A stretch of DNA of 64,000 nucleotides from an uncultured Paraglaciecola sp. (GTDB lineage: Bacteria; Pseudomonadota; Gammaproteobacteria; Enterobacterales; Alteromonadaceae): NCBI RefSeq assembly GCF_913020055.1, contig NZ_CAJWCF010000006.1, positions 8,273 to 72,272 of the forward strand, in the 5' to 3' direction. Below are positions 10,565 to 40,899 of this stretch, piece after piece. The notes beneath the pieces are model-generated. The model was not told the origin of the DNA. It made no database searches and saw only the letters and a list, made by a program, of their open reading frames with translations. Position numbers and translations under genes: made by a program. Each line of letters begins with the position of its first letter. The stretch's first letter is position 1.

Positions 10565-11029
10565 GAGTGTTATTTATTTGAAAGGTTGTTTAAAAGTAGG
10601 TTCAAATATAAAGAAGGACTAATAAATTCCTTCTTTATTGAGTTGAAATTTCTAATTCATTTTCGGCTCAAAGGTGCTGCCCGAGAGGAATACCTATTTT
10701 TACCCTCTTCAATCAACACTTCTGAAATGCGTATTTTGAGGTGGTATACTTATAAATATGTTATTCCCCAATTATCTGGAAAATTTAGCCAGAAATATTG
10801 AGTGTATTACATGGAAACTTATTCTAATTTCTTATAGAAACCAACGGCAATAATATAGATACTGACTTTGATAAGCGAATTACAGACGCTGGGATAATTA
10901 GTTTTTCAACCACGAATTCCTGCATACTTCCGATAAAGATATACTCGCACTATGACGAGTTAGCGTTATTAGGGGGATATGCCCCTTTTAAAGGGTGCCT
11001 GAATAGATGGGGACAATAAATTTAAGCGT

Positions 11030-11230
11030 TATAAACTATTGCAACTCCCTTTGTTATCAAATTATTACCCACAGTTTCTGGCCCTCATTGGACAACAAGT
11101 TAATGGTTTTCCCAAGTATGTGCGTTCAGAATTTGAAACGTACTCCAAGTGAAGAAATTTGGAATATGGCTTTTTGCAAGTTCATTGTAAAGAGTGTCAC
11201 CATGAACACCTTGTTGCAATAACATGCCCT
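11030..11230 (+). pseudogene. Relic of an IS91/ISCR-family transposase, N-terminal zinc-binding domain
   Basis: Hand translation: (SLCYQII, frameshift) NYYPQFLALIGQQVNGFPKYVRSEFETYSK*RNLEYGFLQVHCKECHHEHLVAITC. This matches the remembered IS91-type pattern LYQ..YP.F....G..LP.YV..EF..Y..CG.LE.GF..V.C..CHHE.LVAFSC. In-frame TGA at 11150-11152; the rest of the gene is absent. Confidence 0.75.
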
Positions 11231-11355
11231 AATCACATAGTGAACTAAACCCAATAAGCCTCATTCATTTGTCGGCGCTGTGAAATTTCAATGATGTTAA
11301 GTATGAAAATGAAGAATTATAATCATAAATACAATAATAAATTTAAAGATAAGCT

Positions 11356-12315
11356 TTATTTTTTAACCGGTGTCATTCTTGTTAGATTATCTTTGAATGG
11401 CTTTAGATAGGCTTGATATATTGACTGGTGACCTGGGTCACCAGTGCCGATACCAAACCGAATTTTACCCACCTTAGATGAGTGAATTAAGGTTCCAATC
11501 ATCCTATCCCAAATAGCGAAGGTTGAGCCTAAGTTACGGTCGAAGTGCTCAGGTTTATCGCTATGATGCACTTGATGTTGTGCAGGGCTGATAAACCATG
11601 ACTCAATTTTATCTCCCCAAGACCACCATACGTGGGAGTGGCGAAGGTTTGCTCCCATGACATTGAAAACAAATACAAAAATATTGGCACCAAGAACATC
11701 GAACATACTCAATGTTGGTCCAAAAAAATAATAACCAATACCCACGGCTAACCCTTGAGAGAGTGCCATTCTACATGCGTATAAATAGCTTTCAAAAGGA
11801 TGACTTCGATATATTGTCATCGGTGTCATCACTTTTGCTGAATGATGTACTTTATGGAAATCCCATAGAACGGGCACTTTATGCATGGCTAAGTGCAATA
11901 AAAAACGCGTCAGGTCATCTAACAAAAACAGTACCAGAGTAAAAATACTGATGATAACCACTTGGTTATCAGTGATAGGTGCCATGTCGCCAAACAGTGT
12001 TGCAAGTAAATCTGAAAATCCGATTGCTATTGGCACCATGGTTAACACTATCGGTGCCCAAAGCAATACTTTTAGCAGGCGGTTTACAATAAACAAGCTG
12101 TAATCAAGTCGAGCAGAAGCATGAAACCATATTTTTTTATTAAACAGGTAACCCCAAAAAGCACCCAACCTAAAATTTTTCTTTTGAACTAAGTAAGCCG
12201 GAATAGCGAGCAAAATAGCGGATACTAAATAAATACCAAAAACACGTTTATTGGCATCCATCAAATATCCAGGTAAGTACAGGATACTCTCGCTTAGTAA
12301 ATCAACTATTTGCAT
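11356..12315 (-). CDS. Sterol desaturase / fatty acid hydroxylase superfamily membrane protein
   Basis: His boxes HLAMH, HKVHH, RHSH and HQVHH; several TM segments; RNLGSTFAIWDRMIGT. Confidence 0.9.
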   Translation of the reverse strand: MQIVDLLSESILYLPGYLMDANKRVFGIYLVSAILLAIPAYLVQKKNFRLGAFWGYLFNKKIWFHASARLDYSLFIVNRLLKVLLWAPIVLTMVPIAIGFSDLLATLFGDMAPITDNQVVIISIFTLVLFLLDDLTRFLLHLAMHKVPVLWDFHKVHHSAKVMTPMTIYRSHPFESYLYACRMALSQGLAVGIGYYFFGPTLSMFDVLGANIFVFVFNVMGANLRHSHVWWSWGDKIESWFISPAQHQVHHSDKPEHFDRNLGSTFAIWDRMIGTLIHSSKVGKIRFGIGTGDPGHQSIYQAYLKPFKDNLTRMTPVKK

Positions 12316-12354
12316 CTAATCCTCTTTAAAACACAGTCACTTAAAAAATCCTTG

Positions 12355-14598
12355 CTAAAACCTGTATTTATAACCCACTTGAAACTGCCTCGATTTGGTT
12401 GGCCTTGCACCAAAAGGTCTTCGGCTTGATATTTTTGCGGTATCAAAAATATTATCTATTTTTGCATACAGCTGGCTGTTGCTTGTTAGATTATAACTTC
12501 CTGATAAATCAACATTCGTCAATGCTTGCGTTTTTAAACCTGCTAAAGCTGAATCTCTTGGATCGCCTGGATCAACCGTTAAAGCAGTCTGAGCCGATTC
12601 TTTCATTTCGCCGGAATAACTGGCTAATATAAATATTTGCCAGTTATTCGCGGTTAAACCCAGACTCAGAGATAAAATATCATCCGCTAAATAAGGGACG
12701 CCATCTCCTTCGTTTACGAGTCCCCATTGAGTAAAATCAGAATAGAAGGTGTCTTTGAATTCGGATTCAGTATGCGTGTACACAATCGACCAAGGTAGAG
12801 ACAACTGACTATTAAGTTTATAGGTATCACTGACAGTGGCTTCGATCCCATAAATGTCTACTTCCCCTGCATTAAATTCTACGTCAGTGTCGCACCCAGC
12901 AGAGACAGAGCAACTTTCTTTAAGGTTACTGTAGTCAGTGAAAAAACCAATCACTTCAGCTTCTTGACCACTATTAACGTATCGATAGCCCAGTTCATAG
13001 TTGACACTTTTTTCAGTTTTTATTTCTACCGCTTGCGCAGGGCTGGTAGGCACAAAACCACTGTACACGCCACCAAAGATGCCTGAAAATTTAGATAGTT
13101 CGTAATACGCACTGATGCTGGGTAACCAGATCTTGTTAGTTTTTTTCAGAAAGTCTTGCTCTCGGCCCGGTGCACGGTTTTGATAATAACCATCAATCGA
13201 CTCACCTCTAACACCCAACGTTAGACTGAGGTCTTCAAACTGCAGTGTATCTTGAATATATATAGACAGTGCTTCGGTGTTTTCAGTATTGGTTGAAGTG
13301 GGTTTTGTAGCTTCACCGGTAGATTGCAGGTTTCCTGAGCGTAAAAAGAAGTTGTCTTCTATATGATTTCGCTCAATTTGGTCTTCATGAAAACGAATAC
13401 CTCCTTCAATTTCATTTTCAAGGCCAAACAGTCCCAAGTCCCATGCAAAGTCTATTTGCATGCCCTGTGAATAATACTCACGAGCGTTTGTGCTCAACAC
13501 CAGAATTTCTCTTAAAGTGCTATCTCTATCACCTGTTAACGTTTGATAATAAGGAAGGTTTTGTTCGCTTGTTGGGTCGCGCAAAATTTGCTGCAACGTG
13601 GGTACAAAGCCACCCTGGGAACTAATAAATTCGTTTACTTTAAACCAATCGCGTTCGAAATCATTACGATAAACCCGCGTTGTGGCATTAAAATCAGAAA
13701 ATTCAATATGATGAGTTAGTTGAATTTGTTGATGCTCCCAATTCATCTGGTCTAATTGACTAGATACATAACGTCTATAAGGATTTTCAGAAAAATCAGC
13801 ATCAGTTAAGCCGAGGTAAGTTTCATCCGATGTTTCTTCTCCGTAGGAAAGTTTTAATTCAAACAACTGAGAATAATCATCACCATCCAGTCGATAATTG
13901 AACTTCGCCATCAAATCTGACTTATCGAACCCAGTATCACCGCCGCCATCTATCTCTTTAAAACCATCAGCTTTAAAATGCAAACCTTCCAGCAGGAAAC
14001 CAAAGTCGCCAACAGTATCGCCATAATAAGCGTGAAGTTTGCCATAGTTGTCAGTACCAAGACCTAAATCTAGGGCACTTTCTTGGCTGTCTGGTACTTG
14101 CCTAGAAATGAGGTTTAACGTTCCCGCCACCGTATTCGGGCCGTACTTAATGGTTGATGGACCTTTGGTGACTTCTATTGCCGTCATACGTGTGGTGTTG
14201 GGGAAATAATAAGCAGCAGATGCAGAGTAGGGGGCAGGGCCAATTAAAACACCATCTTCCATGATATTTATTTTTTTACTACGCTCAGGTGTCACGCCGC
14301 GAAACCCGATATTAGGACGTAACCCATAACCGTCCTCTTGACGGATATTGACGCCAGGTACGGTAGCTAAAATTCTGCCGATGTCATCATATTCAAACTT
14401 TTCTAGCTCCAATTCATCAATCAACTTGACTGAGCCTGTCGATTTTATGAGATCTTCTTTGCTGCCGATCACACTCATTCGCTCGATTGAAGTGTGATCA
14501 TCATTTGCAACAGCCAATGGACTAAGCAATATGCTCGTTATTAATACTGCTAAGGGCTTTTTGATCATTGATGGTTTTAATGTATTTAAATTAATCAT
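12355..14598 (-). CDS. TonB-dependent receptor, FecA-like
   Basis: Signal peptide, TonB-box-like IERMSVIG, plug motif VPGVNIRQEDGYGLRPNIGFRG, KYGPNTVAGTLNL, C-terminal GYKYRF. Start (14598) overlaps the imelysin stop. Confidence 0.93.
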   Translation of the reverse strand: MINLNTLKPSMIKKPLAVLITSILLSPLAVANDDHTSIERMSVIGSKEDLIKSTGSVKLIDELELEKFEYDDIGRILATVPGVNIRQEDGYGLRPNIGFRGVTPERSKKINIMEDGVLIGPAPYSASAAYYFPNTTRMTAIEVTKGPSTIKYGPNTVAGTLNLISRQVPDSQESALDLGLGTDNYGKLHAYYGDTVGDFGFLLEGLHFKADGFKEIDGGGDTGFDKSDLMAKFNYRLDGDDYSQLFELKLSYGEETSDETYLGLTDADFSENPYRRYVSSQLDQMNWEHQQIQLTHHIEFSDFNATTRVYRNDFERDWFKVNEFISSQGGFVPTLQQILRDPTSEQNLPYYQTLTGDRDSTLREILVLSTNAREYYSQGMQIDFAWDLGLFGLENEIEGGIRFHEDQIERNHIEDNFFLRSGNLQSTGEATKPTSTNTENTEALSIYIQDTLQFEDLSLTLGVRGESIDGYYQNRAPGREQDFLKKTNKIWLPSISAYYELSKFSGIFGGVYSGFVPTSPAQAVEIKTEKSVNYELGYRYVNSGQEAEVIGFFTDYSNLKESCSVSAGCDTDVEFNAGEVDIYGIEATVSDTYKLNSQLSLPWSIVYTHTESEFKDTFYSDFTQWGLVNEGDGVPYLADDILSLSLGLTANNWQIFILASYSGEMKESAQTALTVDPGDPRDSALAGLKTQALTNVDLSGSYNLTSNSQLYAKIDNIFDTAKISSRRPFGARPTKSRQFQVGYKYRF

Positions 14599-15847
14599 TG
14601 TCACCAGCCGATGTAGCCGGTAATTCGAGCGCTAGCCTCTGAATAAAATCTGTTTTCATATTATCTGTTACGTCTTTAAGTTGATCGTGCACCTCTTGCA
14701 CTTGCTCTGGCTGTTGTACTAACAAGTCTGTAAGTGAGCTTTGTAGACTCAAGGCAAACTCAATAACCTCGGTTAAATCGCCACGCATTTTTGCTGCCGT
14801 GTCAGTTGCACCGACATCAAGCAGATAATCCTCGAATCCAATACCTGCATCAGTTTCGCCACCCAAAAAAATCATATTGAGACCCTGAATGTTGCTGATG
14901 ATATTTTGTAGAGAATGATAAGCAAAACGAGATTCTACATTTTCAGCACAGGGTGCGAGTCCACAATCATTTGCAAACACGCCAAGTGGTGTGGCTAATT
15001 TGGCGTCTTTAGTGAATTTTTCGATATAAAAAATTGCGTCAGACACATCATTCACTGCGTCTTGAGCATTGTTGAATATACTATCCTGTTGACCCGCATT
15101 TTTAAGAATATCAGCATAACCTTGCGCGTTTTCTGAACCGTTCCAGGCCGTTAATAACGCTTCAATATTGGAGACTAAATCTGTAGCAGCGATTTTTGCT
15201 AGTCCACATCTTGCGACTGTTCTGTCTTCATCTGTACGATTATTCCAACCTTGGGGATCGGTTCCAAATACAGTACAGCTATGGTCTAAGTTTGGATTGA
15301 ACAACAAGTATTCGATGGCATCCAAGCCTTTTCTGCTAGCCGTACGTGTACTGATGTCATAGTCTGCTTGTTCAGCTAACACCACGTCTTGGTCTAAAGC
15401 GCAAGCACTCGTATTAGGCCAAGAATATATTTTGTTTCTGAGATCGTTATTGTTATCTAAAAGTGGCCCTATTTGCATCACTTCGGCTATTTGCCAAACC
15501 GCCATGGCATCTCGCCAGCTTTGTTTTGCTGATATTTGTGTTGCATCGATATCATCAGCTTGAGAGGTCAGAGCATCGCAGTAATGACCAATCGCAGTCT
15601 CTTGATCAACCGCTAACTGAGCAAATTTGGTGTAAGTAGGAACAATGACATTGTCAGTTAAGCTTTGTAGAAGCAAAGTCTGGTTGAAACTATTACTAGG
15701 TGTTGTTGGTTTAGTGGCAGCTTGAGAAAATAGCGCCCCTTGAGTGCTACTTGAACTTTCGCCACAAGCCACCAAACCCATTATGGCTCCAATAGCGGCA
15801 CTATTGAGCACTAGATTGATTAGTTTCGAATTAAAAGGTTTTGCCAC
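14591..15847 (-). CDS. Imelysin-family lipoprotein
   Basis: Lipobox LVAC, Ser-rich linker, NVIVPTY, KIYSWP, KGLDAIEYLLF, KLATPLG, C-terminal LALELPATSAGDND. Confidence 0.85.
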   Translation of the reverse strand: MAKPFNSKLINLVLNSAAIGAIMGLVACGESSSSTQGALFSQAATKPTTPSNSFNQTLLLQSLTDNVIVPTYTKFAQLAVDQETAIGHYCDALTSQADDIDATQISAKQSWRDAMAVWQIAEVMQIGPLLDNNNDLRNKIYSWPNTSACALDQDVVLAEQADYDISTRTASRKGLDAIEYLLFNPNLDHSCTVFGTDPQGWNNRTDEDRTVARCGLAKIAATDLVSNIEALLTAWNGSENAQGYADILKNAGQQDSIFNNAQDAVNDVSDAIFYIEKFTKDAKLATPLGVFANDCGLAPCAENVESRFAYHSLQNIISNIQGLNMIFLGGETDAGIGFEDYLLDVGATDTAAKMRGDLTEVIEFALSLQSSLTDLLVQQPEQVQEVHDQLKDVTDNMKTDFIQRLALELPATSAGDND

Positions 15848-15880
15848 TTCTTATACTCCAATATGCATAACGTAAAATTT

Positions 15881-15914
15881 AAAAAAGAGGTTAGCCTCGA
15901 AAGGGTAACCTCTT
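15881..15914 (-). terminator. Intrinsic terminator/attenuator between the first and second gene of the cassette
   Basis: On the minus strand: AAGAGGTTA-C-CCT-TTCG-AGG-C-TAACCTCTT followed by a T tract. Confidence 0.7.
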
Positions 15915-16006
15915 AGGAATATCAGCAGTGTTATTCCAGTTTATTGATAAGATTTGTTATAGATTTTCATTATGAAATTTTACCACGAAATCCTGTTATA
16001 AAAGGT

Positions 16007-17737
16007 TTACCAATTGGCTGCATTCTGTGCATCAAATGCGTAAGCTGCCTGCAACAAATCTCTAGCTATCATTAAATCAGCACGATAAGCCAACACTTCA
16101 GCTTCGCCTGTTAATACCGGCATGTCACCCATCATACTGTGAACTGTAATGAAGTCTGCATCGTTAAGAGGTGTGGCTTTGTTAAACTGTAAACCTAAAG
16201 CGAAGCCCTTCATTTCAGACCAATGTTTTGCGATAGTAGAATAGCTAAAGTCATCAGTTCCAATCGTTCCTAAATCTGCATCTACATCATTGATGTAGTG
16301 AACAACCGTTGCTGCAATGGCTTTTTCCCATGTTAGAACAGCAATATCACGATACCCATAGAGCTCAGTTTTTTGCGCTTCTGTTAACGCAACGCCAGCA
16401 GTATCATTTAACAATTTACGACCCTGTAAAAATGCGTCCATTGCTTCCTTGCTAAAATCGTTAGCGACTGTTGCACCACGGTCACGCTTAGCTGCATTAG
16501 CTGAATGTCCAAAGTTGTACTCAGAATTGAAGTCAATGGCTCCATCTCCATTGGTATCGTGATAAAGCTGCCAATCGTCACGACCGCCCTTTGTGGCGAC
16601 TTCTTCATCCGTGTAATCAAGATAATCTCTGGCCGCACCGAAATAACCGAACCCTTCATCAAACTGATGTTCTAACTCAGTGTATGCTTTTGATGTATCA
16701 GTGTGATCAGAAAGCAAGCCTTTGCCATCTGTATCGCTGTCTAAGTAATCATCTACACCTTGCGAAAATGAGACTGACATTGATAAGAATTTTTGAATAA
16801 GTTGCCTTAAATCACGACCATCACTGGTTAATGAGATATTAGTAATGTCATTACCAAAGGGGTCTTGACGAACGGTTCCGTCTAGTTGAGTTTGTGCATT
16901 ATCAGCAAGCATATCAAAGAAGGTACGAACAAGGCCTTCAGGTGTTGTAGAGCCTTTTGCTCCCCAACCTGCAAACTCACTATTCCAGTCTTTATGCTGA
17001 CCTGTGGTATCATTACCTGCTATTTTACCTACTAAATTTTTTGACGAGCTTGATAAGTCTGCCAACACAGTTTGAGCGCCAGGCGACGTGGTTGTTAAAA
17101 TTGAACGTTGTGAAGCCACATCATAATCAGAAACATCAAAATATGAATTAAGTGCATTGATTACCGCATCACGATTGATAAAAGCGCCATTGGTATCAAA
17201 CGCTGTTGCATCGCTTATTTCTGCACCAATAAATTTGAATAGGTCACTTATCAGTATTTGACGAGCCACTTGTCCGCTATAATTTACCGCAGACTCTCCG
17301 GGCATCGCTTTACTTTCGAAATCGTAATAATCTAATAAGTCATCGACATAAAGGGTTATATCTTTGCTGAAAGTGGCACTAGCACTGTCAGTAACTGTGA
17401 CAATTAAGGAAACGTTGGCTTCTTGCTCAAAGTTCAGTGTATTTTCTGCTTTGAGTTTTAACGCCGCACCATCTATTTCAAAACGATCGTCGTCAACAGC
17501 AAAAGTAAAGGTATCTGCTGTATCAGCATCGGTTGCTGATAAGGTGCCAATAGCGGCACCTGTAACGTTCTCTGAAACATTACTGGCAGACAAAGCTATG
17601 TCTGTAGGTGCGCTATTGACCGAAGGTGTAGGAGTCGGCGTTGGCATAGAATCACTAGAACTTCCACCACAGGCTGTTAATCCAAATGTGGCAGCAACAA
17701 CTGCGGCTGATAATAAACTCTTTTTAGTTTTAAGCAT
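16007..17737 (-). CDS. Lipoprotein with a cadherin-like repeat and a DUF4856-type domain
   Basis: Start MLKTKKSLL at 17737 (GAGGG RBS), lipobox LTAC, GGSSS and PTPTPTP linker. Cadherin motifs: APTDI.LS...SEN, ATDAD, LNFE, VTVTD. Then SAVNYSGQVARQ, DLRQLIQKFL, EHQFDEGFGYFG, AKHWSEMKGFALGLQFN. Confidence 0.8.
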   Translation of the reverse strand: MLKTKKSLLSAAVVAATFGLTACGGSSSDSMPTPTPTPSVNSAPTDIALSASNVSENVTGAAIGTLSATDADTADTFTFAVDDDRFEIDGAALKLKAENTLNFEQEANVSLIVTVTDSASATFSKDITLYVDDLLDYYDFESKAMPGESAVNYSGQVARQILISDLFKFIGAEISDATAFDTNGAFINRDAVINALNSYFDVSDYDVASQRSILTTTSPGAQTVLADLSSSSKNLVGKIAGNDTTGQHKDWNSEFAGWGAKGSTTPEGLVRTFFDMLADNAQTQLDGTVRQDPFGNDITNISLTSDGRDLRQLIQKFLSMSVSFSQGVDDYLDSDTDGKGLLSDHTDTSKAYTELEHQFDEGFGYFGAARDYLDYTDEEVATKGGRDDWQLYHDTNGDGAIDFNSEYNFGHSANAAKRDRGATVANDFSKEAMDAFLQGRKLLNDTAGVALTEAQKTELYGYRDIAVLTWEKAIAATVVHYINDVDADLGTIGTDDFSYSTIAKHWSEMKGFALGLQFNKATPLNDADFITVHSMMGDMPVLTGEAEVLAYRADLMIARDLLQAAYAFDAQNAANW

Positions 17738-17795
17738 GTTTCCCTCGAAATACAAATGGATTAGTAATTTATTTGACGTAAACACTATAAAACAG

Positions 17796-17824
17796 ATGCA
17801 AATAAGAATCAATGCTATTTGCAT
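17796..17824. promoter_or_regulatory. Putative Fur box upstream of the cassette
   Basis: Perfect 9-bp inverted repeat ATGCAAATA-N11-TATTTGCAT. The central 19-mer AATAAGAATCAATGCTATT matches AATGAnAATnATTnTCATT at 12 of 16 defined positions. Confidence 0.6.
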
Positions 17825-18907
17825 TATTGTTTGGTGAGTGATGATAAAGTGTTTTAATGTAAATAATCAGAATTTTATTGATTGACTCATGACTGCTGTA
17901 GTCGATAAGTTAGTCTGTATGAAAGTCAAACAGATGGTCGTGGCCATTTTGATCATAATTTGTAAGTCATCCGAACGTTAATATTCTCAATCAAATAAAA
18001 GTCATAGTCTGTAAGGTTTTCTGCAATAAAATACTGTGCGTAAATTAGTTGTTAAAGCGCCAGTAACAAAAATCGAAGTCTGATGCTCCTCATTTCTTTA
18101 CTCATAAATATTTACTCGTTTTCTAAAAGCTTTTGAATATCTAATTTGCCTATCACTTTTATTTATTTTTTCCGTGCACTTATAAAAAACAGAAGTTTCT
18201 AACATATAAAAATTACATCCATGTAACCCATATTTAAAGTTCAGCAAATAGTACATTCGCTAATCCATTTACCAAACGATTGATTTAATTTTTTAGTTGT
18301 TCTTTAAAATTCCTTACTGAATTAATATTTATCACTGTATTTTTCTCATAAGTGGAATGATTTTTCCATTCGCCGCGCGCATGGCTTCGCAGGAGCGTGT
18401 ATCTGAATACAATCAAGTGCTCATGATGACAACCTTCAAAACGTTCTCACAAAAACCTATTTTTAAAAGATCCGCGCTTGAGGTAAGATTCAAATTTTGA
18501 GCGCGCATACTTTCACACCGTCTCTTTTGTGGTATCCATTACAAGAGGCATATCACTCCCGACACTGCTATTTTTCAGTACAGGTGTGTTTTTTGTTGTC
18601 GCTATGCTGAAACTTTATAGCGCAAAGATACGGGCAATAACGGTCTGAATCTGGAGTGTTCACTTGCCTAATGAGTGGTATATCCGTTTGCAAGCTATCA
18701 GTAATTTTGCACTTTTAACCACGATTCAGTGCTATTTGTGGATGATTAGCTTTATGATCATACTGGTACACTTGTCTTTGTTAAGTATTGACTGCAAGAT
18801 TGTTAGTAACAGAAACCATCAATGCGACACTTACCAAGTAAGGTTACATTGATTGTCCTTTCTGTTTTGTTAATATCTAATGACTATAAAAAACGACAGG
18901 GAAAATA

Positions 18908-20734
18908 ATGCGAATAATAAAACAAACCCTACTATCGGTAGCCGTTTTGGCTTCTTGCGTTGCTTGCGCGCCCGCAAACAAGCCTGAAACTGCTATCAGC
19001 GCCGTGACCTTAACGGCTGCAGATGCAAATGAATTTTTAGAGCAATATGCCAGTGAAATGGAAAAGATAGCAACACCTGCAGCCCATGCTTCATGGGCTT
19101 ATGCAACCCACATCAATTTCGATACTGGAAAAGTCAACGCATATTTTAACGAGCAAACATCGGTATTGAGCGCTCAGTATGCCGTTGCAGCAGCCACATT
19201 TAATGATGTAGAAGTAGACGCGGATACTAGACGCCAACTAGAACTCCTAAAAGCCTCACTCGAAATAGCACCACCTGCAGATCCTGCAAAAGCCGAACGA
19301 CTGGCTGCCATTGGTTCCCAAATGACCAGCATTTATGGAGCGGGTGAGTATTGTAGAGAAGATGGGACTTGTTTGTCTTTAGTGCAAATGAGCGCTGAAA
19401 TGGCAACAAGTCGTGATCCTGAATTACTGCAAGAATATTGGCAAGGGTGGCGCGAAATTTCAAAGCCCATGAAAGACGTTTATGCGGAGCAAGTGCTGAT
19501 TGCGAATGAAGGTGCTAAAGAGCTAGGTTTTGCAAATACTTCTGAATTATGGCGCGCTAAATATGACATGCCCGCCGCTGAATTCCCAAAAGAATTGGAC
19601 CGACTTTGGGGCCAGGTAAAACCTTTTTATGCAGCCTTGCAATGCCATGTACGAGCTGAGTTATCTGAGCATTATGGTGAAGAGACTGTGCCGTTAGACC
19701 AGCCTATACCGGCACATCTTTTAGGAAATATGTGGGCACAAAGCTGGGGTAATATTTACGACATTGTGAAACCAGAACAAGAAATGAATGTCCCTGATGT
19801 GACAAAAGCAATGGCTGACCAAGGCTATGATGAAATTAGAATGGTCAAAGAAGCGGAAGCGTTTTTCTCATCCTTAGGTTTTACATCATTGCCCGAAACG
19901 TTCTGGGAACGTTCAATGTTTCAAAAGCCACCCGGCCGCGATGTGCAATGTCACGCATCTGCCTGGAACATAGACAGTAAAGAAGATTTGCGTATTAAGA
20001 TGTGTATTCAAATTACCGGTGAAGAATTTAACGTTATTCACCACGAGTTAGGTCATAATTATTATCAACGGGCATATAAAGACCTCCCCATTCTTTATCG
20101 TGGCTCTGCCAATAGCGGTTTCCACGAAGCGATTGGTGACACTATTGCTTTGTCGATGACTCCTACGTATTTAAAAGGACTCGGATTAATCGATGACATT
20201 CCTGACGCGTCAAACGACATAGGTATGTTATTAAAAGTAGCGCTGGATAAAATTGCGTTTATTCCTTTTGGCTTAATGGTTGATCAATGGCGCTGGCAGG
20301 TTTTAGCAGGGGACATCACGCCAGATAAATACAACGAATTGTGGTGGGAACTGCGTGAAACCTATCAGGGTGTAGCTGCACCTGTGAGCAGAGATGCTGA
20401 TGCTTTTGATCCCGGTGCTAAATATCATGTACCGGCCAACGTGTCTTACACACGCTATTTTTTAGCACATATCCTACAATTCCAATTTCATAAAGCATTG
20501 TGCGATATTGCTGGCAGTGAAGAGCCATTGCATCGCTGTTCAATTGTGGGCAGTAAAGAGGCCGGAACAGCCTTAAATGACATGCTTGAAATGGGTAAGA
20601 GTCAGCCTTGGCAAGAGGCTATGCAAACAATGACGGGTGGCCGAGATATGGATGCATCCACTATTGAGGCGTATTTTGCCCCTCTGAAAGTGTGGTTAGA
20701 TGAGCAAAACGCTGACCGTCAGTGTGGGTGGTAA
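18908..20734 (+). CDS. M2 family metallopeptidase (peptidyl-dipeptidase A, ACE-like), predicted lipoprotein
   Basis: Lipobox CVAC; HLLGNMWAQSW; zinc motif HHELGH; ANSGFHEAIGD; FDPGAKYHVP; YTRYF. Confidence 0.93.
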   Translation: MRIIKQTLLSVAVLASCVACAPANKPETAISAVTLTAADANEFLEQYASEMEKIATPAAHASWAYATHINFDTGKVNAYFNEQTSVLSAQYAVAAATFNDVEVDADTRRQLELLKASLEIAPPADPAKAERLAAIGSQMTSIYGAGEYCREDGTCLSLVQMSAEMATSRDPELLQEYWQGWREISKPMKDVYAEQVLIANEGAKELGFANTSELWRAKYDMPAAEFPKELDRLWGQVKPFYAALQCHVRAELSEHYGEETVPLDQPIPAHLLGNMWAQSWGNIYDIVKPEQEMNVPDVTKAMADQGYDEIRMVKEAEAFFSSLGFTSLPETFWERSMFQKPPGRDVQCHASAWNIDSKEDLRIKMCIQITGEEFNVIHHELGHNYYQRAYKDLPILYRGSANSGFHEAIGDTIALSMTPTYLKGLGLIDDIPDASNDIGMLLKVALDKIAFIPFGLMVDQWRWQVLAGDITPDKYNELWWELRETYQGVAAPVSRDADAFDPGAKYHVPANVSYTRYFLAHILQFQFHKALCDIAGSEEPLHRCSIVGSKEAGTALNDMLEMGKSQPWQEAMQTMTGGRDMDASTIEAYFAPLKVWLDEQNADRQCGW

Positions 20735-21174: not shown

Positions 21175-21747
21175 TTAGCTGGGGTTCATCGCTATAAACT
21201 TCAGTGCCACGCCGTTATTGCACCAGCGTTGACCGGTGGGTTTAGGACCATCATTGAACACATGGCCCTGATGTCCACCACAGCGGATACAATGATACTC
21301 GGTGCGTGGCCAAATCATTTTATAATCTTTTTTGGTCGCTAAATGCCCAGGGATATGGGTAGTAAAACTGGGCCATCCTGTGCCGCTTTCAAACTTCATC
21401 GCTGACGTAAATAACGGCAAATCACAACCTTCACAGGCATATATGCCCTTACCATGCTGTTCATTTAAGATGGAAGAGCCAGGGCGCTCCGTTTGTTCTT
21501 CTCGAAGCACTCTAAAAGCAGCCGAACTAAGTCGCTGTTGCCATTCTTGTTTACTCAGTTTCAGAGGTGTCAACACTAAGCTGCCACTGTAGCTTTTAGG
21601 TAGAAACTTGCGCCATTGTTGCTCTATTGCGAGTGCAGTTCTGCTTTTTTTAAATGCGGGCTCACTAAAAGCCGAAAACATGGTGCTGCCTAATCCCAGG
21701 CTTGCGGTCACTGCAATAGTTGACGTGATAAATTTTCTGCGGTTCAT
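21175..21747 (-). CDS. msrB: Peptide-methionine (R)-S-oxide reductase with Tat signal
   Basis: NRRKFI twin-arginine motif, CEGC and CIRC zinc pairs, KFESGTGWPSF, GHQGHVFNDGP, RWCNN. Confidence 0.93.
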   Translation of the reverse strand: MNRRKFITSTIAVTASLGLGSTMFSAFSEPAFKKSRTALAIEQQWRKFLPKSYSGSLVLTPLKLSKQEWQQRLSSAAFRVLREEQTERPGSSILNEQHGKGIYACEGCDLPLFTSAMKFESGTGWPSFTTHIPGHLATKKDYKMIWPRTEYHCIRCGGHQGHVFNDGPKPTGQRWCNNGVALKFIAMNPS

Positions 21748-21976: not shown

Positions 21977-23194
21977 TCAAAGCATCCCAGTGGCGCTCAT
22001 GATCAAACGAATACCTAAACCTGCAGTCACCATCACTACTATTATGCCAAGCGTATTACCCAACCATTTATTGGTATATTGACCTAATTGTTTTTTATGG
22101 TTCATGACAACCAGTAAGAAGATGGCAATAACAGGCAACAACAAACCATTGGCAAATTGCGCGGCTAAAATAATGCTAATAGGTTTGATTCCAGTTAAGG
22201 CTAAGATCACACCACTAAAAATGACGCTAAGGGCAATTAACTTAAAGGTACGTGATGACGTGCCGCCCTTAACCCCTAATATTTCTGTCATGGCATAGGC
22301 TGTGGCTAAAGGTGCGGTGATTGAGCTGCTTAAGCCTGCTGCAAAGAAACCTACACCTAACATGGTTTTTGAAAATGAACCGAACAGTGGTTCTAGTTGG
22401 GTTGCCATGTCTCCCGCACCAGATATATTTAACCCGCTACCAAAAATGCTGGCAGCGGCCGTGGAGGCTATCAATATGGTAATTAACCCACCTAATCCAA
22501 TCGCGGTGGCAGTGTCTGCTCTAGCGTGATTTAAATCGTTAACAGATGACCACTTGGCTTTTACCGCTGAGGCATGCAAAAACAAATTGTAGGGTACTAC
22601 TGTTGTACCAATTAAGGCGATGACAGTTAACAGGCTGCCATCAGGGATTTTGGGGGTAGTGAGACCTTTAAAAAGTGCGCTTAAATTGGGGCCAACAGAG
22701 ATAAAGGTCGCAATAAATGCTAGCGCCATCAGCGCGACTAATATCAGTAAAATACGTTCAATTTGTTTATATGAACCACGCCACAGTAAAGTACCCGCTA
22801 ACAGCGAAATAAGAATAACTGAGATTCGGTAAAACGATTGGCTATTATCTGTTAATGCATCGATGCCTAATGCCGCACCGGATAAGTTTCCTGCCTCGTA
22901 TGCTGCATTACCTAAATACAAAGCCACCATGATCAGAGCAAATAACGGCCATTTCCAGATAGATTGATTCAGCATGATTCGTAATGTTTCGCCTAACCCT
23001 TGTTGAGTGACTAAGCCCAAACGAGCGGACATTTCTTGCAAGATAATAGTGGCGATGGTGGCAAATAGTAACGCCCAAAGCAGAGTGTATCCGTAATTTG
23101 CGCCTGCTAAAGTACAAGCCGTGACTGTTCCGGGACCAATAAATGCCGCTGCGATGAGCGCACCAGGACCGATGTTTTTTAAACGTTTTAGCAT
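21977..23194 (-). CDS. NRAMP-related transporter (YcsG-like)
   Basis: NIGPGALIAAAFIGPGTVT, QEMSARLG, GTTVVPYNLFLHA, about 11 TM segments. Lacks the canonical DPGN and TM6 Met. Confidence 0.85.
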   Translation of the reverse strand: MLKRLKNIGPGALIAAAFIGPGTVTACTLAGANYGYTLLWALLFATIATIILQEMSARLGLVTQQGLGETLRIMLNQSIWKWPLFALIMVALYLGNAAYEAGNLSGAALGIDALTDNSQSFYRISVILISLLAGTLLWRGSYKQIERILLILVALMALAFIATFISVGPNLSALFKGLTTPKIPDGSLLTVIALIGTTVVPYNLFLHASAVKAKWSSVNDLNHARADTATAIGLGGLITILIASTAAASIFGSGLNISGAGDMATQLEPLFGSFSKTMLGVGFFAAGLSSSITAPLATAYAMTEILGVKGGTSSRTFKLIALSVIFSGVILALTGIKPISIILAAQFANGLLLPVIAIFLLVVMNHKKQLGQYTNKWLGNTLGIIVVMVTAGLGIRLIMSATGML

Positions 23195-28540: not shown

Positions 28541-28760
28541 CTAGCTACTACTAACAATCCGATTTCGATCTGTTTTTTACTTGTACTAACCCAATATCGA
28601 CTCGTTTTAGCGCATTAGCATTTTGTCGGCTAATTTAGTCGCTTCTGTTAGCGAGGATTGTGGCAGTTATAGTAGAAATGCTTCATCGTCAAAATGCAAT
28701 ACTGAGTCTAAATTGCGGTAGATGGATTGTATTAGCAAGATATTGATAATAACTCTCTGG
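28541..28760 (-). pseudogene. Decayed duplicate of the 3' half of the GGDEF gene at 29675-30493
   Basis: 28621-28718 aligns ungapped by eye to about 29858-29955 (TTTTGTCGGCTAATTTAGT[C/G]GCTTCTGTTAGCGAGG[A/T]TTGTGG...). It translates RNLDSVLHFDDEAFLL*LPQSSLTEATKLADKM, then after a deletion NALKRVDIGLVQVK and DRNRIVSSS*. Confidence 0.8.
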
Positions 28761-40677: not shown

Positions 40678-40899
40678 ATGTTGATTGTTATTGAGGTTTT
40701 TTGAACTATTGGCTAACAAAATATACGACACCGGACTCTTGATAATAGTGAAGAGTATTGTTGGGAATCATTCGCGTTGTCCAGACTAAATGAATATAGA
40801 GTGTTGGAATTCTGCTACTTAAAGCCAGTCTAAACTGGCGACATATCGAATGGGATTATTATTTCGACCACTAAATGAGTGGCTAATTTTAACCACTCA

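Follow-up and report, generated by a model that had tools for sequence, protein, structure and literature searches.

Four minus-strand genes in DNA of an uncultured Paraglaciecola sp. (contig NZ_CAJWCF010000006.1; the whole stretch of 64,000 nucleotides that was analysed is called the window) were found to represent a gene cassette that recurs across several phyla in the company of iron-uptake genes. They encode a cadherin-like/DUF4856 lipoprotein (g1, 16007-17737), an imelysin-like (Peptidase_M75) lipoprotein (g2, 14591-15847), a TonB-dependent outer-membrane receptor (g3, 12355-14604) and an integral-membrane di-iron protein of the fatty-acid-hydroxylase/sterol-desaturase (FAH) superfamily (g4, 11356-12315), which is referred to below as the hydroxylase. 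We put at about one half the probability that the four genes are an operon for TonB-dependent acquisition of iron, of a widespread type and probably repressed by Fur. Such a cassette would carry out Fur-controlled iron uptake by a receptor and helper lipoproteins, and would include an enzymatic component that is widely conserved and unexplained. Except for the transcriptomes of Riemerella and SAR11 that are cited below, the evidence is computational throughout.

Distribution and genomic partners of the cassette

The distribution was followed from the hydroxylase, using one genome per species. The hydroxylase subfamily was present in at least 567 species genomes, and the best 80 loci were analysed; they were sorted by tblastn and by labelling of open reading frames (ORFs), and the neighbours were checked with Pfam. 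In 77 of the 80 loci the hydroxylase adjoins genes for DUF4856, imelysin, a receptor, an FbpA-type ATP-binding cassette (ABC) system or a di-haem oxidoreductase. All four genes are found together in 44 of the 80. The order DUF4856, imelysin, receptor, hydroxylase is the same in 42 loci, from Paraglaciecola, Alteromonas, Salinimonas, Bowmanella, Pseudoalteromonas, Shewanella, Colwellia, Thalassotalea, Ferrimonas, Psychrobium, Catenovulum, Kangiellaceae and Ectothiorhodospiraceae, and is rearranged in two, from Nitrospirota and Bdellovibrionales. Two loci at contig ends (L001 and L024) are consistent with the cassette in their visible part, and one (L036) has imelysin, receptor and hydroxylase in this order, DUF4856 not being detected.

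Two further designs were found. In 21 loci the gene for a soluble DUF4856 protein lies immediately 5' of the hydroxylase gene without imelysin or receptor (Pelagibacteraceae, SAR116, Planktomarina, Cognatishimia, Rhodospirillales, Hyphomicrobiales, Neptuniibacter, Oceanospirillaceae and Saccharospirillum). In nine loci, from Arcobacter and its relatives, the hydroxylase is preceded by a canonical imelysin, a di-haem oxidoreductase and an imelysin without the motif histidine, and is followed by a cytochrome c peroxidase; L064, which is one of the 21 pair loci, also has imelysin/di-haem genes of this Arcobacter type. Only three loci (L029, L040 and L071) had no such neighbour.

Thirteen of the 21 pair loci lead on into FbpA/FutA-type ferric ABC genes, usually with permease and ATPase, and three Colwellia-type full cassettes lead directly into genes for a binding protein, a fused permease and an ATPase. 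The hydroxylase gene is thus followed by FbpA-type transporter genes in 16 of the 80 loci, with permease and ATPase where the contig extends far enough. Other full cassettes lead into DUF3450-ExbB-ExbB-ExbD. Among solved structures, FbpA/FutA proteins such as Mannheimia FbpA and Synechocystis FutA match the adjacent binding proteins at 1e-104 to 1e-106. A 2-aminoethylphosphonate system was considered for the ABC genes and rejected, since the NCBIfam matches were all below cut-off and the sequence search of the PDB gave FbpA/FutA. The earlier note on this DNA, which was made from the sequence alone, had listed as absent a periplasmic binding protein with ABC permease, an EfeU/EfeB-like partner, a di-haem peroxidase and siderophore synthesis genes. 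This holds for the window but is not a defining property of the cassette, as its relatives have FbpABC, ExbBD or di-haem peroxidases adjacent.

A second scan was anchored on DUF4856 and covered 30 metagenome loci with at least 5.2 kb of downstream DNA. Imelysin and receptor were present in 26 of these, and the hydroxylase also in 19 of the 26. The seven loci without hydroxylase have, between imelysin and receptor, a protein with HTTM and vitamin K-dependent carboxylase lumenal domains. Sister cassettes with this HTTM enzyme lie on Myxococcota-like contigs (L103, L108, L110, L127, L130, L135, L141 and L162), and the same order appears in the precomputed annotation of a Myxococcota genome. A cluster with a similar annotated gene set has been described in Riemerella anatipestifer, where RAYM_09779-09794 comprise contiguous genes for a TonB receptor, a vitamin K-dependent gamma-carboxylase, an imelysin lipoprotein and a hypothetical protein (PMC5609570); all four rise under iron restriction (PMC5609570, Table 4). 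For control of the cassette family by iron, this is the closest evidence from experiment. In the SAR11 strain HTCC1062, SAR11_1239, an 'unknown protein' beside sfuC, is up 2.5-fold on iron limitation (PMC2864753). This gene could be the DUF4856 or the hydroxylase gene, as these stand beside ferric ABC genes in the Pelagibacteraceae loci L063 and L077.

The connection with iron, which the earlier note had drawn from what was known of imelysins and FecA-type receptors, is therefore strongly supported: iron-type neighbours occur in 77 of the 80 loci, the cassette genes occur in three independent operon designs, the adjacent binding proteins are close to solved ferric-binding proteins, the Fur motif is enriched upstream, Fur-family genes lie nearby, and iron restriction induces the Riemerella cluster with its similar annotation. 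No paper on the four-gene set, nor one that joins imelysin with a desaturase or hydroxylase in the context of iron, was found in the searchable literature, in agreement with the earlier note, to which no experimental description of the combination was known. A reconstruction of the alpha-proteobacterial iron regulon makes no mention of the DUF4856 and hydroxylase genes.

The four proteins

The assignment of each of the four proteins to its family was borne out by a hidden Markov model scan with Pfam. For g1 the match to PF16148 (DUF4856) was 29.4 bits against a cut-off of 22.3, and every homologue is annotated with PF16148 in the precomputed annotation. The Pfam Cadherin score of 25.9 bits was under the cut-off of 28.8; in the AlphaFold2 model, residues 45-132 match cadherin/protocadherin EC domains (Foldseek E ~4e-4, probability 1.00). 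The N-terminal ~90 residues are therefore predicted to have a cadherin-like Ig fold, and the assignment to cadherin holds at the level of the fold only. The model has a pLDDT of 87 for the full protein, and the helical DUF4856 domain (residues ~140-576) one of 90.5 with a pTM of 0.92. The fold search for the helical domain was made with a truncated model, since most matches of full-length g1 came from its cadherin-like part. The idea that DUF4856 is a disguised imelysin, with EHxxDE resembling HxxE, was rejected: the profile-profile probability was 0.2, and EfeO was found by Foldseek at rank 11 with E 1.5 and a TM-score of 0.18. Sequence searches with g1, g2 and the profile of g4 gave no useful match in the PDB, and DUF4856 is not mentioned in the searchable literature.

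Conservation in DUF4856 was examined in 62 homologues, down to 27% identity. E356, H357, D360, E361, Y365, D394, E406 and D419 are conserved at 93-100%, most of them being invariant, and the same range holds for R440, W470, Y481, K504, H505, E508 and K510. As judged from the residues alone, the conserved His/Asp/Glu/Tyr set might suit a ferric-iron site. Residues 392-406 (HDTNGDGAIDFNSE) form a DxDxDG-type loop of the calcium-binding kind, in which D402 is conserved at ~90% in the family and D394 and E406 without exception.

Both g1 and g2 were confirmed as lipoproteins. Their lipoboxes (...FGLTAC with C23 in g1, ...GLVAC with C28 in g2) have cysteines that are invariant among orthologues, and the residue at position +2 after the cysteine is Gly in both, which we take to be consistent with outer-membrane targeting under Lol sorting. 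DUF4856 proteins encoded beside a receptor are lipoproteins with the cadherin-like domain; those encoded beside an ABC system only are soluble, with an ordinary signal peptide and no cadherin-like domain. The form thus goes with the partner, and this indicates that DUF4856 has a conserved job that is independent of the receptor and is done either in the periplasm or at the outer membrane.

The g2 protein matches PF09375 (Peptidase_M75) at 2.4e-30 and 106.6 bits (cut-off 23.5) over positions 1-282 of the 288 in the model. Its GxHxxE motif reads GLDAIE, so that the histidine is absent; orthologues have D, A, I or Y in its place. By this motif g2 is of the GxxxxE (IPPA/PA4372-like) type, and the canonical imelysin, IrpA and EfeO families keep the histidine (PMC3143127).

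In g3, the Plug (PF07715, 3.5e-15) and barrel (PF00593, 1.2e-29) domains both scored over their gathering scores, and an N-terminal signalling (STN) domain was not found by Pfam. The signal peptide is followed by a TonB-box-like IERMSVIG and the protein ends in ...GYKYRF, both of which were read by eye from the sequence. Among solved structures FecA is the closest relative, over the plug only (residues 49-173, 1e-17). Because g3 was below all NCBIfam cut-offs, with 88 bits for the FecA model, again from the plug only, against a cut-off of 1100, and has no STN domain, it was rejected as a FecA equivalog. The description 'FecA-like', which the earlier note had used for the receptor, suits the plug domain and does not extend to the full receptor.

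The hydroxylase matches PF04116 (FA_hydroxylase) at 7.9e-22 and 78.5 bits (cut-off 31). Its histidine boxes H141xxxH145, H154xxHH158 and H247xxHH251, together with H226 and H228, do not vary among 14 orthologues. Since all canonical boxes are invariant, g4 probably functions as a di-iron enzyme. The positive-inside rule places these boxes, and also the C-terminus, in the cytoplasm. The assignment of g4 as an OlsE ornithine-lipid hydroxylase was rejected, the score for NF052566 being 41.4 bits against a cut-off of 475.

In a number of loci the hydroxylase frame is fused to that of its neighbour. In three alphaproteobacterial loci (L067, L079 and L080) it has no stop and continues, through a hydrophobic stretch that resembles a signal peptide, into the frame of the ferric-binding protein; in L064 it is joined to cytochrome c peroxidase; and ORF labels show it joined to the TonB receptor in one genome locus and six metagenome loci (L060, L111, L115, L121, L134, L151 and L158). 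The junction was read in four of these fusions, and it consists of a hydrophobic segment and an AxA-type site, after which the mature partner begins. The fused frames may be polyproteins that are cleaved by signal peptidase, or they may contain internal start codons. Their topology supports a cytoplasmic C-terminus of the hydroxylase, and their existence argues for a tight functional coupling with the neighbours.

Control, expression and surroundings of the genes

Four co-oriented ORFs on the minus strand were recovered across 11356-17824, and the 39-bp gap between g3 and g4 was confirmed. The previously described 8-bp overlap of g2 and g3 holds if g3 starts at ATG 14598; candidate starts are 14604, 14598 and 14568, and with GTG 14604 the overlap becomes 14 bp. 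The spacer between g1 and g2 is 159 bp. Initially g1 had been listed as 16007-17824. Its true start is most likely ATG 17737, because this gives MLKTKK...FGLTAC with the lipobox and a protein of 576 amino acids, as in the orthologue of P. psychrophila, with which g1 shares 89% identity. With this start the Fur-like element is located upstream of g1 and not within it.

This element, the Fur-box-like palindrome GCAAATAGCATTGATTCTTATTTGC at 17798-17822 on the minus strand, is situated ~60-85 nt 5' of the start codon of g1. A hand alignment with the E. coli Fur consensus gave agreement at ~10 of 19 positions, and the best automated match in the 250 nt upstream was another site, with 11 of 19. With a matrix made from pre-selected sites upstream of orthologous g1 genes, the element scored 13.0 bits and ranked third in the 64-kb window. 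The other top matches, at 28739-28757 and 40763-40781 (14.8 and 13.1 bits), neighbour ORFs without a Pfam match or with DUF1304 and have no evident link to iron. Among 59 orthologous loci, 28 have upstream of g1 a site that agrees with the Fur consensus at 14 or more of 19 positions, versus 3% of random windows. The palindrome that the earlier note had seen in front of the genes is present, and the motif is conserved in orthologues. It overlaps the -35 element and the spacer of a sigma-70-like promoter (TTGATT-17 nt-TATAGT, 17784-17812, minus strand) that was found by a consensus scan and is not significant alone. The position of this promoter agrees with the upper limit of metatranscriptome coverage at ~17815.

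A regulator gene may once have been present here. At 17853-18156 (minus strand), in an otherwise ORF-free region of 1.17 kb upstream of the cassette, tblastn with the P. psychrophila Fur-family protein gave two collinear fragments in different frames with 37-40% identity (E 9e-5 and E 0.09, which is marginal), as of a decayed Fur-family gene. In P. psychrophila (L161) the Fur-family gene is intact and begins its course 107 bp from the cassette on the upstream side; a close metagenomic relative (L082) also has an intact one, ~110 bp upstream of g1.

An intrinsic-terminator-like hairpin with a T-run was predicted by RNA folding at 15881-15913 (minus strand), in the spacer between g1 and g2. An equivalent hairpin occurs in 37 of 39 same-order cassettes, versus 8% of shuffled spacers, and its sequence varies by genus. 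As only ~33 nt separate it from the start of g2, g2-g4 are probably expressed through read-through, and the hairpin is probably an attenuator that keeps the DUF4856 protein in excess over the downstream products. Contigs of close relatives in sea-ice metatranscriptomes span exactly g1-g4, from ~17815 down to ~11150. Depth was highest over g1 compared with g2-g4, contig depth being a rough measure and the samples having no iron contrast. One contig crosses the g2/g3 junction and others read through the spacer between g3 and g4. Matches were found only in metatranscriptome contigs, and no RNA runs of cultured strains were found. One contig, of run X26, omits 154 nt at 17553-17708, where the low-complexity and cadherin-like N-terminal part of g1 is encoded; either a difference between strains or an artefact of assembly may be the cause.

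The DNA match to P. psychrophila (L161, CP003837) extends over 11306-17833, ~6.5 kb at 90.4% identity, and ends abruptly on both sides. Since the similarity is confined to this segment, the cassette is a discrete module in differing surroundings of the two related genomes, and it has been relocated as one block. Its neighbours in P. psychrophila are a gene for a P19-like Iron_transport protein and two gene pairs, one of AraC and receptor, the other of receptor and PepSY_TM, an arrangement that resembles an iron island; a cupredoxin gene is also near. The flanks in the window have no relation to iron and consist of a convergent Ugp/MalK-type sugar ABC system with DUF2160, and an oxoprolinase. 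Divergent from the cassette is a Peptidase_M2 gene (18908-20734, plus strand, E 2e-220) for a full-length bacterial homologue of angiotensin-converting enzyme. At a distance of 4 kb upstream of the cassette, and outside the conserved module, there follow on the minus strand an MsrB gene (21175-21747) and a gene for an Nramp/MntH-type divalent-metal transporter (21977-23194). Apart from the latter, no further iron genes were found in the 64-kb window. The 790 bp 3' of g4 (10565-11355) contain no ORF of at least 80 amino acids and no convincing terminator.

The role of the hydroxylase and the place of the cassette among iron systems

In an operon for iron acquisition the products could act together as follows. 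Iron limitation would cause transcription to start ~50 nt upstream of g1, and the conserved attenuator after g1 would make the DUF4856 lipoprotein more abundant than the products encoded downstream. At the outer membrane the conserved His/Asp/Glu/Tyr cluster of this lipoprotein would capture iron or pass it on, probably as ferric iron and without a dedicated siderophore. The imelysin-like lipoprotein would be a second relay, and the receptor would move the iron over the outer membrane with energy from TonB. The inner-membrane step would be performed by a separate FbpABC-type transporter, which is adjacent in some relatives and would here be located outside the window. The hydroxylase would be an O2-dependent di-iron enzyme with its active site at the cytoplasmic face, and not a transporter. 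Our best, though tentative, suggestion for its role, to which we give clearly less credit than to the operon as such, is that it supplies, by synthesis or regeneration, a membrane lipid or quinone-type cofactor on which the periplasmic iron-handling proteins depend; in the sister cassettes the vitamin-K-carboxylase-like HTTM enzyme would play a parallel role. That DUF4856 binds metal, in which order iron is handed over and in which form it is taken up are our inferences, as is all of the hydroxylase chemistry. The proposal of the earlier note that uptake is independent of siderophores is plausible, because the pair of DUF4856 and hydroxylase occurs in Pelagibacteraceae loci without a nearby receptor gene.

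Several observations weigh against this interpretation. The best family match of g3 is a generic siderophore-receptor model, and it is under the cut-off. The helical domain of DUF4856 has no significant match in the PDB by Foldseek, so that its fold is without a solved relative, and profile-profile comparison shows no link between DUF4856 and the imelysin family of g2. Relative to the E. coli consensus the Fur-like site in the window is weak, and the sites that made up the matrix had been selected beforehand for their resemblance to a Fur box. The case for regulation of the cassette by iron comes from motifs and from a related cluster of another phylum, and in that cluster the hypothetical protein would be a DUF4856 protein to judge by the annotated gene set. 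Finally, the equivalence of HTTM enzyme and hydroxylase is positional: the HTTM enzyme, which we presume from vitamin K carboxylase to act on the periplasmic side, and the hydroxylase, predicted to act on the cytoplasmic side, probably work at opposite faces of the membrane.

Other roles for the hydroxylase have been weighed. It is unlikely that it serves membrane-lipid remodelling, of ornithine or similar lipids, and is co-regulated by iron stress without being part of uptake. OlsE is the only named family that it resembles (1e-10 to 1e-12), and to our knowledge the characterised members of the superfamily all act on lipids. The OlsE scores, however, are 41-47 bits against the cut-off of 475. 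Moreover, co-regulation alone fails to predict that the hydroxylase is immediately adjacent to its partners in three operon designs and several phyla, and neither the frames fused with binding protein, receptor and peroxidase nor the retention of the gene in Pelagibacteraceae is to be expected from it.

Slightly less likely still is a function as iron acceptor or ferric reductase at the cytoplasmic face, by which Fe3+ from FbpBC would be released as Fe2+ and the hydroxylase would be part of the import complex. Such a function would agree with the His-rich di-iron site, which is placed in the cytoplasm by the positive-inside rule and the topology of the fused frames, with the adjacency to fbpA in 13 loci, and with the three alphaproteobacterial frames in which one transmembrane segment connects hydroxylase and ferric-binding protein. 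Also the hydroxylase has been kept in Pelagibacteraceae loci; SAR11 genomes are minimal, and accessory genes in them should be essential to their pathway. On the other hand, we know of no precedent for this role in the superfamily. It leaves unexplained why the place of the hydroxylase can be taken by an HTTM enzyme, in which this kind of metal site is lacking, and why the hydroxylase is linked to periplasmic imelysin/peroxidase operons that have no adjacent FbpBC.

It is improbable that the cassette takes up an iron chelate that is amphiphilic or has a lipid tail, or else a nutrient resembling a lipid, and that the hydroxylase processes the acyl or alkyl part. Marine siderophores are often acylated, g3 is most like siderophore receptors, and one database labels a g4 orthologue 'alkylglycerol monooxygenase'. 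Yet the partner in the ABC-linked loci is an FbpA/FutA-type protein, a class that binds unchelated ferric iron, and the conserved neighbours include no catabolic gene, such as one for an esterase or an acyl-CoA ligase. SAR11, moreover, is without TonB receptors or siderophore systems (PMC13271415).

The role that the earlier note had given to the membrane di-iron enzyme was to replace the usual inner-membrane step, that is, to translocate iron itself instead of an ABC or EfeU-type permease. In favour of it, no ferric ABC transporter or permease adjoins the cassette in the window, and g4 is an integral-membrane protein of an iron-binding type that is constantly linked with iron-uptake genes. 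We now hold it to be very improbable. The hydroxylase coexists with FbpABC, as FbpA-type genes follow it in the 16 loci mentioned above, including three full cassettes, its boxes are predicted to be cytoplasmic, and it is replaced in sister cassettes by an HTTM enzyme, which is likewise an O2-dependent enzyme of the membrane, and not by a permease; the idea is for these reasons unsupported. In addition, the eight canonical catalytic di-iron histidines are all invariant, and no member of the fatty-acid-hydroxylase superfamily is known to us as a transporter. Most remote is the handling of copper, zinc or manganese instead of iron, for which a weak similarity of g3 to OprC and ZnuD, the cupredoxin gene near the cassette in P. 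psychrophila and the Nramp gene 4 kb off in the window could be adduced, and against which stand the Fur-type boxes, the adjacent ferric-binding proteins, the iron induction of the Riemerella cluster and the membership of imelysin/di-haem partners in Fur regulons (PMC3143127).

As a proposed iron-acquisition operon the cassette can be compared with known systems. With the icmP cluster PA4370-PA4373 of P. aeruginosa, with VC1264-VC1266 of V. cholerae and with the lruB cluster of Leptospira it shares an imelysin-family lipoprotein in an iron-regulated operon whose mechanism is unexplained (PMC3143127, PMC7567364). The second imelysin of the PA4370-type operons (PA4372/IPPA) is, like g2, without the motif histidine (PMC3143127), and the imelysin/di-haem operons in Arcobacter contain orthologues of g4. 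However, the PA4370-PA4373 type has DUF1111/DHOR, a second imelysin and DUF1513, none of which is in the window, where the DUF4856 lipoprotein, the receptor and the hydroxylase are encoded in their stead. Also g2 is only remotely like the Arcobacter imelysins (E 6e-4 and 0.04). The ferrous-iron system EfeUOB/EfeM likewise combines a periplasmic metal-binding protein with M75/imelysin domain, a redox enzyme and a membrane component (PMC9174327, PMC3143127). Unlike EfeUOB, the window and the conserved neighbourhood have no EfeU/Ftr1 permease and no DyP peroxidase; there is no cupredoxin domain either, and g4 is from an unrelated superfamily with a predicted cytoplasmic catalytic site.

The arrangement of g1-g3 is reminiscent of TbpB/TbpA, HmuY/HmuR and Bacteroides XusB/XusA, in which the gene for an outer-membrane lipoprotein adjoins that for a TonB receptor under control of iron. 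XusB, formerly DUF4374, is a DUF lipoprotein that has been shown to serve an iron receptor, and we suppose that g1-g3 function along similar lines. DUF4856 is nevertheless unrelated to the TbpB, HmuY and XusB lipoproteins in sequence and fold, it also exists in a soluble form with an ABC system and without a receptor, and the cassette in the window has two lipoproteins where these systems have one. FoxA/FoxB and PiuA/PiuB pair a TonB receptor gene with an inner-membrane redox protein, and such a PepSY_TM pair stands beside the cassette in P. psychrophila. PepSY_TM proteins are haem-containing reductases that act at the periplasmic face; g4, unlike these, is of the non-haem di-iron oxygenase type and is predicted to face the cytoplasm.

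FbpABC, FutABC or SfuABC, of which the SAR11 sfuABC is a classic iron-induced operon (PMC2864753), are direct partners of the pair of DUF4856 and hydroxylase in the 13 loci and of the full cassette in the three of Colwellia type, and their genes are absent from the window. The HTTM cassettes of Myxococcota have the same first two genes and the same receptor, and the Riemerella cluster matches them in its annotated gene set; they differ in that the HTTM/vitamin K-dependent gamma-carboxylase lumenal-domain enzyme replaces the hydroxylase and is placed before the receptor. A wider proposal, which we regard as doubtful, is that DUF4856 and hydroxylase are an ancient, so far overlooked core module for iron acquisition. 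In it an O2-dependent membrane enzyme would, by chemical means, give a new class of periplasmic or outer-membrane iron-binding protein its ability to bind metal, or preserve this ability. The hydroxylase or HTTM enzyme would modify the DUF4856-type protein or supply it with a lipid- or quinone-derived cofactor. The pair would be flexible as to its importer, plugging into a TonB receptor, FbpABC or an imelysin/peroxidase system, and would be needed for inorganic ferric iron by abundant bacteria of the ocean, for example SAR11 and SAR116.

Iron limits bacterial growth in much of the ocean, and its uptake by bacteria that make no siderophores, such as SAR11, is poorly understood beyond FbpABC/SfuABC. 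Two uncharacterised genes, those for DUF4856 and the hydroxylase, accompany iron importers of three designs across several phyla. If they are needed for uptake, they would represent a new class of iron-binding protein and an O2-dependent membrane enzyme in iron acquisition, and both genes would be markers of iron stress for marine metagenomes and metatranscriptomes. As DUF4856 is soluble in alphaproteobacteria and the cassette is carried by cultured Paraglaciecola, Pseudoalteromonas and Shewanella, the question is directly testable.

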